DNA of 315 nucleotides from Escherichia coli (GTDB lineage: Bacteria > Pseudomonadota > Gammaproteobacteria > Enterobacterales > Enterobacteriaceae): NCBI RefSeq assembly GCF_003334765.1, contig NZ_QOWT01000145.1. The stretch is one strand, 5' to 3'. The position numbers and the translations under genes were made by a program. Below, in pieces: positions 1 through 315 of the stretch. The notes beneath the pieces are model-generated. The model saw only the letters and a program-made list of their open reading frames with translations. It ran no database searches and was not told the origin of the DNA. The number at the start of each line of letters is the position of its first letter. The stretch's first letter is position 1.

Positions 1-122
1 ACCCCCGCCGATCTCGATTATCTCCGGCAGTTCGACAGGGAGTGTATCGAACGAAATCTCAGTCCAGGCGGCAGTGCCGATTTGCTAATTGTCACCTGGT
101 TTTTAGCGTCCCTAACCGGGCG

Positions 123-134
123 CTGAATCATTAA
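123..134 (+). promoter_or_regulatory. Candidate Cra (FruR) operator-like site, TGAATCATTAAT, in the leader just upstream of the RBS
   Basis: Seen in sequence: gcTGAATCATTAAT; against the Cra consensus as I recall it (TGAAWCSNTHHW, left half GCTGAA most conserved) it matches 11 of 12 positions, with the left half GCTGAA fully present at 121-126. Established knowledge: acnB is reported to be Cra/FruR-regulated. Consensus matching done by eye only. Confidence 0.35.
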
Positions 135-141
135 TATATCC

Positions 142-145
142 GGAG
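142..145 (+). promoter_or_regulatory. Shine-Dalgarno / ribosome-binding site of acnB (GGAG), 6 nt upstream of the ATG
   Basis: Seen in sequence: cGGAGttaactATG, a purine-rich core with canonical spacing to the only start codon in the frame. Confidence 0.8.
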
Positions 146-151
146 TTAACT

Positions 152-315
152 ATGTTAAAAGAATACCGTAAGCATGTAGCTGAGCGTGCCGCTGAGGGGA
201 TTGCGCCCAAACCCCTGGATGCAAACCAAATGGCCGCGCTTGTAGAGCTGCTGAAAAACCCGCCCGCGGGCGAAGAAGAATTCCTGTTAGATCTGTTAAC
301 CAACCGTGTTCCCCC
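152..315 (+). CDS. acnB: Aconitate hydratase B (bifunctional aconitase 2 / 2-methylisocitrate dehydratase), N-terminal fragment; 3' end lies beyond the window (54 complete codons 152-313 plus 2 nt)
   Basis: Seen in sequence: ATG at 152-154 is the only ATG/GTG/TTG in this frame after the in-frame TAA at 113-115; GGAG at 142-145 sits 6 nt upstream; the frame is open to the window end; Leu is mostly CTG, as in enterobacterial coding sequence. Translation MLKEYRKHVAERAAEGIAPKPLDANQMAALVELLKNPPAGEEEFLLDLLTNRVPP matches my recollection of the E. coli AcnB N-terminus (MLEEYRKHVAERAAEGIAPKPL...) at all but residue 3. Recognised from memory, not from a database search. Confidence 0.93.
   Translation, partial: MLKEYRKHVAERAAEGIAPKPLDANQMAALVELLKNPPAGEEEFLLDLLTNRVP

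Follow-up and report, generated by a model that had tools for sequence, protein, structure and literature searches.

Duplicated genes in bacteria are homogenised by gene conversion, as in the case of tufA/tufB and the ribosomal RNA (rRNA) operons. In Escherichia coli, aconitase B is encoded by the housekeeping gene acnB (b0118 in K-12; PDB 1L5J), which is located in the order lpdA-yacH-acnB-yacL, and the native citrate lyase locus is citCDEFXG-citT with dpiBA. In PMC4150767, RyhB is described to bind the native acnB ribosome-binding site and to repress the mRNA. The RyhB-induced decay is described to depend on UUUAAAAA, an RNase E site located at the stop codon, and a stem-loop just 3' of the stop codon, within the 67-nucleotide (nt) 3' untranslated region (3'UTR), is described to be protected by apo-AcnB. 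Here, we analysed a stretch of 315 nt from E. coli (contig NZ_QOWT01000145.1, assembly GCF_003334765.1; the whole stretch is called the window), which contains the 3'-end of a citG gene and the 5'-end of an acnB gene. We conclude, with a probability of roughly 80%, that the window covers the place where citG and acnB meet in an accessory operon that is horizontally mobile, in which the start of acnB is the operon's own, the interior of the gene was homogenised with native acnB, and the regulation was swapped. The anatomy of the junction, its frequency, its occurrence in a second genus and the edge-restricted signature of the gene were directly observed and are described below.

A first-pass annotation of the window had noticed that codons 2 and 3 of acnB encode Leu-Lys, and had given the K-12 protein as MLEEYRKHV, with Leu-Glu. 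This was correct. The acnB gene of K-12 (W3110) starts with GTG CTA GAA GAA TAC CGT AAG CAC GTA, five further native alleles have the same start, and the N-terminus in the E. coli AcnB crystal structure (PDB 1L5J), MLEEYRKHV, differs from the 54 residues encoded in the window at residue 3 only. The difference itself, including TTA instead of CTA, was also real, because positions 152-160 read ATG TTA AAA; the open reading frame (ORF) from position 152 starts with ATG TTA AAA GAA TAC CGT AAG CAT GTA and has the translation MLKEYRKHVAERAAEGIAPKPLDANQMAALVELLKNPPAGEEEFLLDLLTNRVP. A wrong K-12 sequence, which had been considered as a cause, is thus refuted by K-12 and by 1L5J. What had been overlooked is that the start codon also differs (GTG in all six native E. 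coli alleles examined, L002 6000-6002, versus ATG at 152-154 in the window), and that the sequence in front of the start has no relation to the leader of native acnB. In total, the window differs from native acnB at three of the first seven nucleotides and at one more site, nt 24 of the gene. The other explanation that had been offered, an E3K substitution by natural variation, held insofar as the difference is natural, but it is not an allelic substitution in the housekeeping gene. Because the window contains a second acnB behind citG, and because the differing bases lie where native homology begins, the difference is a paralogue marker at a recombination boundary and not an E3K allele of housekeeping acnB.

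The distribution of the window was analysed in 5,426 complete E. coli genomes. The whole window was present in 35 of them (about 0.6%), with one copy each and always beside a separate native acnB. In the other genomes, the match fell into two pieces, one in citG with 90-95% identity over positions 1-107 and one in acnB from position 153-159 onwards, and positions 104-160 were confined to the 35 carriers, where they occurred once each. When positions 140-190 were used as the query, exactly 35 genomes had a match of at least 99%, whereas the other genomes aligned from position 153 at about 92%, with three mismatches (5,390 genomes in the range of 90-95%, one in the range of 80-90%, and none between 95% and 99%). 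Since the 95-99% range is empty, no native E. coli acnB has TTA and AAA together, although single changes are not excluded thereby. A reference E. coli acnB with TTA AAA, which would have turned the variant into a normal sequence, was therefore not present in any of the 5,391 non-carrier genomes.

Strain E400634 has a segment with 100% identity to the window. This segment is part of a genomic island, on which the order is citF'(5'-truncated)-citX-citG-acnB. The island acnB is not located at yacH/yacL; citG is upstream and insertion sequence (IS) remnants are downstream, and the native leader (…gagcgaggagaaccgtc GTG) is not there. A local BLAST comparison of this island (L001) with the native loci revealed two homology blocks, 17217-20107 (citF'XG, 97.5%) and 20153-22772 (acnB plus 27 nt, 96.5%), and the approximately 45 nt between them match neither native locus. 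In the window, the homology to K-12 citF'XG ends at position 107 and that to K-12 acnB begins at about 153-159. The carriers were isolated from humans, dogs, mink, poultry, gulls, wastewater and seawater, and they represent different hosts, countries and lineages. The gene order, which allows only a rough placement, suggests that the islands are located at different chromosomal sites, one of them pheV-like together with kps and others pheU- or leuX-like. The unique three-gene part of the cluster was complete in 32 genomes, always with at least 99.5% identity, and truncated clusters were found in three carriers, E400634, E500002 and B-JRPT-4119.

The age of the junction became apparent from an Enterobacter sp. 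cluster (CP135594.1), which was reached via relatives of the amidohydrolase encoded in the operon. This cluster (L013) is colinear with the E. coli cluster and has 79.2% identity over 8.4 kb. Behind citG, it continues with ...TATCAGGAGTTAATT GTG TTA AAA GAA TAC CGT AAG CAC GTA GCT..., and all that is left of its acnB is a remnant of about 165 nt that has a frameshift and an in-frame TAG, whereas the cit genes are intact (L013 17447-17620 / L014 9090-9270). The C-terminus of CitG agrees with this picture: the last six residues of the island protein (...FLASLTGR) are unlike the K-12 type (...TWFLAQI), and the Enterobacter tail (...FLTALTRV...) resembles the island and not K-12. Judged from these alignments, the junction, the Shine-Dalgarno sequence, the spacer and TTA AAA are common by descent to cluster lineages that have diverged by about 20%. 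Because TTA AAA is present at a junction that is only 79% identical, these bases are inherited and paralogue-specific rather than two recent point mutations, whereas ATG is specific to the E. coli island lineage, because the Enterobacter junction has GTG. Codons 1-3 would thus belong to the operon's own junction sequence, which would predate both the E. coli and the Enterobacter version of this cluster. The island cit genes have 96-99% identity to native K-12 but only 74-87% to the Enterobacter cluster, and the CitD and CitE proteins are identical to those of K-12; for the unique genes, the identity between island and Enterobacter is 72-81%, about the same range as for the cit genes. An old junction and near-native paralogues are compatible with each other only if native E. 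coli sequence has since taken the place of the paralogous interiors.

The signature that such a replacement leaves was analysed by comparing three island acnB allele types (type A in 21 genomes, B in 10 and C in 3; one further copy apparently spans the start of its record) with six native alleles. At twelve sites, all island alleles share a base that none of the natives has, namely at nt 1, 4, 7, 24, 2556, 2568, 2572, 2583, 2585, 2586, 2588 and 2591. All 12 lie within 67 edge nucleotides, for which the probability under uniform placement is about 9e-20. In the intervening 2,530 nt, island and native alleles differ at 55-111 positions, which is inside the range between native alleles (29-112), and uninterrupted stretches of identity extend up to 641 nt. 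In the protein, Lys3 and the tail ...ADRVIFPSVV (...ADGVIFQTAV in the natives) are the sole residues specific to the islands, and the codon differences in the interior are about 70 synonymous versus 2-3 non-synonymous ones. In the cit block, differences likewise accumulate within the 60-100 nt at either end. When islands are compared with each other, 0-4 nt per 500 nt are different in the unique genes, whereas the divergence of the cit and acnB parts is 2-3% and patchy. Paralogue-specific sites at the edges in 12 of 12 cases, together with an interior inside the native allele pool, are the pattern of concerted evolution. Gene conversion, by homologous recombination with alleles of native acnB, would thus have homogenised the interior of the island gene. 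Only nt 1-24 and 2556-2591 keep the paralogue sequence, because exchange cannot cross the homology boundary, and codons 1-3 would represent the unconverted 5' edge.

The new start also has predicted consequences for initiation and regulation. The minimum free energy (MFE) of the region from -20 to +15 is -0.9 kcal/mol for the island gene versus -6.2 kcal/mol for the native gene, and when codons 1-3 of one gene are placed in the context of the other, the MFE changes as expected, by about 2.4 kcal/mol. The perfect start-codon palindrome that the first-pass annotation had highlighted is a 5-base-pair A/U-rich stem; its predicted energy is 0 to -0.2 kcal/mol, and no significance as a structure is detectable. 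For RyhB, pairing was limited to the core of the RNA versus the region from -25 to +15, because full-length duplex prediction gave unrealistically long duplexes. With the RyhB sequence as we take it to be, the predicted duplex with native acnB has -25.0 kcal/mol (shuffled sequences -13.0 +- 3.1; 0 of 500 reach the native value), while that with the island gene has -6.1 kcal/mol and is no better than shuffles (-7.2 +- 2.5). The native sequence at -3 to +5 (GUCGUGCU) is complementary to the RyhB core and part of the predicted native duplex, and therefore G1A and C4T fall inside the predicted native RyhB seed. At the other end of the gene, the island sequence at the stop codon is UUUAAGAA versus the native RNase E site UUUAAAAA, native homology ends about 27 nt past the stop, and neither a native-type stem-loop nor a terminator was predicted in the 3' flank. 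An A/U-rich, unstructured start with GGAG 6 nt in front of ATG would thus replace the native GTG leader, and the new leader would remove the RyhB pairing site as well as the native promoter and the 3'UTR controls. Plausibly, the island acnB escapes iron-sparing and housekeeping control and would be expressed with the operon.

Intact clusters were present in 21AR0173, ES1 (sequence type ST38) and Santai, and they are compact and co-directional. The order is a divergent HutC-type GntR gene, followed by genes for an Amidohydro_2 protein (265 amino acids, aa) and an MFS transporter (449 aa), citCDEFXG, and acnB. From the amidohydrolase gene to acnB, the intergenic gaps are 31, 5, 14, -4, 10, 3, -26 and 25 nt, and a consensus scan of the cluster found no terminator-like site between citG and acnB on the + strand. 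The genes thus have the structure of an operon, i.e. one strand, short or overlapping gaps and no internal terminator, and acnB would share a transcript with the cit genes, controlled by the GntR-type regulator. The amidohydrolase contains an Amidohydro_2 domain (PF04909, E = 1e-43, residues 4-257), its closest structures are 2FFI (1e-67), 4I6K (7e-59) and LigI (4D8L, 4.5e-24), and the transporter belongs to an organic-anion MFS group. The module may channel a lactone or a tricarboxylate-type substrate via aconitase to citrate and then to citrate lyase. An aconitase step that feeds citrate lyase is suggested by the association of AcnB with the module, which recurs independently in other Enterobacterales. 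In Citrobacter amalonaticus, the order is GntR, divergent from Amidohydro_2-CitMHS-citCDEFXG-acnB(865 aa)-oadGA. In Klebsiella oxytoca, an AcnB-type gene adjoins the regulator gene of the module, and its neighbourhood also includes PrpF, an Iso_dh-family gene and two further genes of the aconitase family. In E. fergusonii, aconitase and PrpF genes are close to the module. On two further Enterobacterales contigs, the unit of regulator, amidohydrolase and MFS genes is located directly 5' of a native-like acnB-yacL or between acnB and yacL. The blocks in K. oxytoca and E. fergusonii look like a larger uncharacterised tricarboxylate pathway. The extra aconitase-family genes in these two species encode proteins of about 645 and 754 aa (L015/L016 1-9000; L021 14400-20795). 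Both blocks include PrpF and an Iso_dh-family dehydrogenase, and the E. fergusonii block also has a PF10282 lactonase and a second CitMHS transporter.

As a functional interpretation, the mobile operon, circulating in E. coli and its relatives, may serve the use of a lactone or tricarboxylate nutrient, with a LigI-like hydrolase and the MFS transporter delivering the substrate to a dedicated AcnB and then to citrate lyase, a private leader that frees acnB from RyhB and housekeeping control, and recombination with core acnB that keeps the enzyme matched. This is a tentative proposal, to which we give somewhat less than even odds.

Several observations weigh against the overall reading or parts of it. 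The acnB gene of the Enterobacter cluster is decayed, and therefore aconitase is dispensable for that version of the operon. Co-transcription and regulation are proposed from gene architecture only; the consensus promoter and terminator scan was uninformative, as the cluster contained fewer promoter-like sites than shuffled sequences. For the amidohydrolase, the only NCBIfam equivalog match, NF042924 (4-sulfomuconolactone hydrolase), has a score of 136.8 versus a cutoff of 500. The RyhB sequence used for pairing is presumed to be correct, and the pairing is a prediction only. Gene conversion was deduced from patterns, and the native alleles compared come from strains other than the island carriers. 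In addition, the six native alleles were picked as closest matches, which favours interior variants shared with natives, and even the closest native alleles in the sample are separated from each island type by about 2%, without a recent donor tract beyond identical runs of up to 641 nt. Finally, one patch of the ES1 acnB, nt 230-800 (L005 12230-12800), has diverged from most natives further than the remainder of the gene; it is only 90-95% identical to 4,739 native alleles and reaches 100% identity in three island copies only. The identity of 90-95% to most natives rules out a simple recent conversion of this patch from a common resident allele. The patch may be retained ancestral sequence or may come from an unsampled donor; the diverged segment either circulates between island and native copies or stems from outside the sampled E. 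coli. A handful of native acnB alleles (e.g. MFDS1022581) match the patch at 98-99%.

Four other explanations were weighed against the junction of a mobile operon. The simplest one is ordinary allelic variation, i.e. two point mutations (the synonymous C4T and G7A, resulting in E3K) in housekeeping acnB. Lys3 does occur with a native leader: among 100,044 species genomes (one genome per species), MLKEYRKHV in any codons had three matches, two in Cycloclasticus (GTG TTA AAA) and one in Serratia sp. DD3 (GTG CTA AAA), and the acnB of the latter has a typical enterobacterial leader and an lpdA...acnB...yacL-type order. In the window, however, citG replaces the yacH-acnB leader, all 35 carriers hold a separate native acnB, TTA together with AAA is absent from the 5,391 other genomes, and the two changes are accompanied by GTG to ATG, by nt 24 and by a distinct C-terminal tail, so that allelic variation is very improbable. 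An artefact, that is, a sequencing error, a chimeric citG/acnB assembly or a wrong K-12 sequence for comparison, is conceivable in principle as far as misassembly is concerned, because short-read contigs often stop where the duplicated cit genes begin or end. Yet the identical junction is present in 35 independent complete genomes and three metagenome contigs, a diverged form is present in Enterobacter, and Leu-Glu is confirmed by K-12 and PDB 1L5J; we regard the chance of an artefact as practically negligible.

A recent de novo assembly within E. coli has more in its favour. In this scenario, two illegitimate recombinations captured citCDEFXG and acnB, the bridge of about 45 nt and codons 1-3 are filler, and concerted evolution is not needed. 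The near-native identity of the island cit and acnB genes (96-99%, with identical CitD and CitE proteins) and the restriction of acnB homology to the ORF plus 27 nt are as expected. It is nevertheless quite unlikely, because the Enterobacter cluster, at about 79% identity, has the same architecture, CitG tail type, Shine-Dalgarno sequence and spacer, GTG TTA AAA and an acnB remnant, and a junction of that age is incompatible with a paralogue divergence of 2-3% unless the interiors were replaced later. The patchy differences of 2-3% between islands are limited to the paralogous segments, and a recent transfer from E. coli to Enterobacter is contradicted by the 72-81% identity in the unique genes. 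An adaptive protein change, in which Lys3 and the C-terminal tail tune a second AcnB (e.g. via interactions of the N-terminal HEAT-like domain or RNA binding), is compatible with the mobile operon and its homogenised acnB. Lys3 and ...RVIFPSVV are the sole residues that are fixed in islands and absent from natives, and the junctions of E. coli and Enterobacter both encode Lys3. Against this stands that recombination limits predict the location at the edges without selection, that Lys3 occurs in ordinary native AcnBs, that the cluster AcnBs of Citrobacter (VLND...) and Klebsiella (VLEE...) lack it, and that the Enterobacter gene is decayed, and we consider adaptation unlikely. The presence of Lys3 in the native acnB of Serratia sp. 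DD3 and Cycloclasticus shows that it is tolerated, though rare, and it is probably near-neutral for the enzyme.

The features of the window are compiled in the following table. The segment between the two homology blocks, which has no homology to native citG-citT or yacH-acnB, comprises the citG tail, the spacer, the Shine-Dalgarno sequence, ATG and codons 2-3. In the part of citG that is homologous to the native gene, the mismatches concentrate in the last approximately 50 nt, with eight of them within the final 60 nt of the homologous block. Both proteins passed the curated cutoffs of their families, CitG with 641.1 bits in NCBIfam NF007503 (cutoff 477) and island AcnB with 1716.2 bits in TIGR00117 (equivalog, cutoff 1287.2, residues 1-854), and the 865-aa acnB ORF was intact in every island allele type examined. 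An Rfam search of the window yielded no RNA family at E <= 1.

Features of the 315-nt window (positions are counted from its first nucleotide)
Feature	Positions	Strand	Basis and remarks
3'-end of the accessory-cluster citG	1..126	+	Last 41 codons and TGA stop codon at 124-126; frame 1 translation, RefSeq annotation in E400634
Part of citG homologous to native E. coli citG	1..107	+	90-95% identity in most genomes
Cluster-specific junction segment	108..158	+	Base-by-base comparison with K-12; can be aligned to the junction of the Enterobacter cluster
Spacer between citG and acnB, 25 nt, A/T-rich	127..151	+	Sequence; promoter/terminator scan
Shine-Dalgarno-like GGAG, 6 nt 5' of ATG	142..145	+	Kept in the Enterobacter junction (cAGGAGTTAATT GTG)
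Inverted repeat TTAAC-TAT-GTTAA	146..158	+	RNA folding prediction
5'-end of the island-borne acnB paralogue, 54 codons	152..315	+	Full gene 2,598 nt (865 aa), intact
Codons 1-3, ATG TTA AAA (native GTG CTA GAA)	152..160	+	Paralogue-specific edge marks, gene nt 1, 4, 7
Native-like start of the acnB interior	159..315	+	About 97-99% identity to native E. coli alleles
Fourth paralogue-specific 5' site, CAT versus native CAC, synonymous	175	+	Gene nt 24

The surroundings of the clusters were also inspected. The E400634 island (L001 1-40315) contains kps capsule export and biosynthesis genes, a CP4-like cbtA/yeeU toxin-antitoxin system, IS66, IS100 and IS3 remnants, malX-malY, an agaR fragment and a tyrosine integrase gene. 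Its cluster is broken inside citF beside a JAB-domain gene, which results in an artificially extended 'citF' ORF of 1,566 nt. GmM066 has only a 1-kb cluster fragment, the GntR gene, beside a DUF4942 gene (NZ_CM183652.1 4400585-4401601); this fragment is a further, independent decay product of the island module. Outside the complete genomes, an intact island acnB was found on three metagenome contigs (human-gut and other), and a metagenome scan for the junction yielded E. coli island copies only and no new lineage. The unique part of the cluster had no match in a plasmid collection. On E. coli plasmids, three acnB matches and a few citG matches (e.g. citG with 92.5% on NZ_CP110860.1) represent extra-chromosomal copies. 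Short metagenome and Logan contigs break at the boundaries of the duplicated cit genes (starts of L027 and L028, ends of L030-L033), and contigs of closer relatives of the amidohydrolase stop at the start of citC, short of the junction. The locus, it is suggested, is often fragmented in draft assemblies, and the second acnB is possibly collapsed onto the native copy, both there and in typing schemes that work gene by gene.

RefSeq annotates the cluster genes under generic names, and the second acnB has the same name as the housekeeping gene. A literature search on an island-borne acnB, on the cluster and on isocitrate or hydroxycitrate lactone catabolism found nothing relevant. Apparently, the context, a rare mobile operon with its own aconitase B, is undescribed, while the variant itself is ordinary. 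On its own, E3K has little consequence, but it serves as a diagnostic tag for a second acnB that is possibly missed or collapsed in short-read assemblies. If the interpretation is true, a core gene of the tricarboxylic acid cycle was 'borrowed' by a genomic island and is maintained there by concerted evolution, and the island is a natural example of how the regulation of a core enzyme can be rewired solely by a swap of the leader and the 3'-end. The operon would also represent a new architecture of citrate lyase operons, with aconitase in place of the CitT antiporter together with a lactonase-like enzyme and an MFS transporter, which would point to an uncharacterised anaerobic catabolic route in gut Enterobacteriaceae. 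Concerted evolution between island and core genes would furthermore matter for recombination analyses and core-genome multilocus sequence typing (cgMLST) with acnB or cit genes.

In comparison with known systems, the native citCDEFXG-citT locus with dpiBA has the same six cit genes in the same order as the island. The island differs from it in that acnB replaces citT (the citrate/succinate antiporter), a HutC-type GntR regulator replaces the two-component system dpiBA, genes for an Amidohydro_2 hydrolase and an MFS transporter precede citC, and the start of citC and the end of citG are different from the native sequences and Enterobacter-like. The clusters of C. amalonaticus, K. oxytoca and Enterobacter sp. 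have, as in the island, GntR divergent from Amidohydro_2-transporter-citCDEF(X)G. Unlike the E. coli island, the Citrobacter and Klebsiella clusters contain a CitMHS transporter and added oadGAB, and their AcnB is a deeply diverged paralogue (about 72% at the nucleotide level; VLNDYRKHQ and VLEEYRQHQ, respectively), whereas the E. coli copy is near-native except at its edges. The protein encoded by the first gene of the operon is nearest to structures of the LigI-type (2-pyrone-4,6-dicarboxylate lactonase) branch of Amidohydro_2, with a score below the curated equivalog cutoff. The housekeeping acnB of K-12 belongs to the same family as the island gene and has the same length of 865 aa, with a nucleotide identity of 96.7% and differences at only 2-3 residues in the interior of the protein. 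The two genes differ in context (yacH-acnB-yacL versus the island behind citG), start codon (GTG versus ATG) and tail (GVIFQTAV versus RVIFPSVV), and the island gene, unlike that of K-12, is without the native promoter, the predicted RyhB site and the native 3'UTR stem-loop or terminator. Unlike in tufA/tufB, one partner resides on a mobile island in less than 1% of the strains while the other is a core gene, and the evidence for the proposed exchange consists of population patterns. As in concerted evolution of the tufA/tufB type, however, the interior of the island acnB would be homogenised, and the differences are located where the flanking homology ends.

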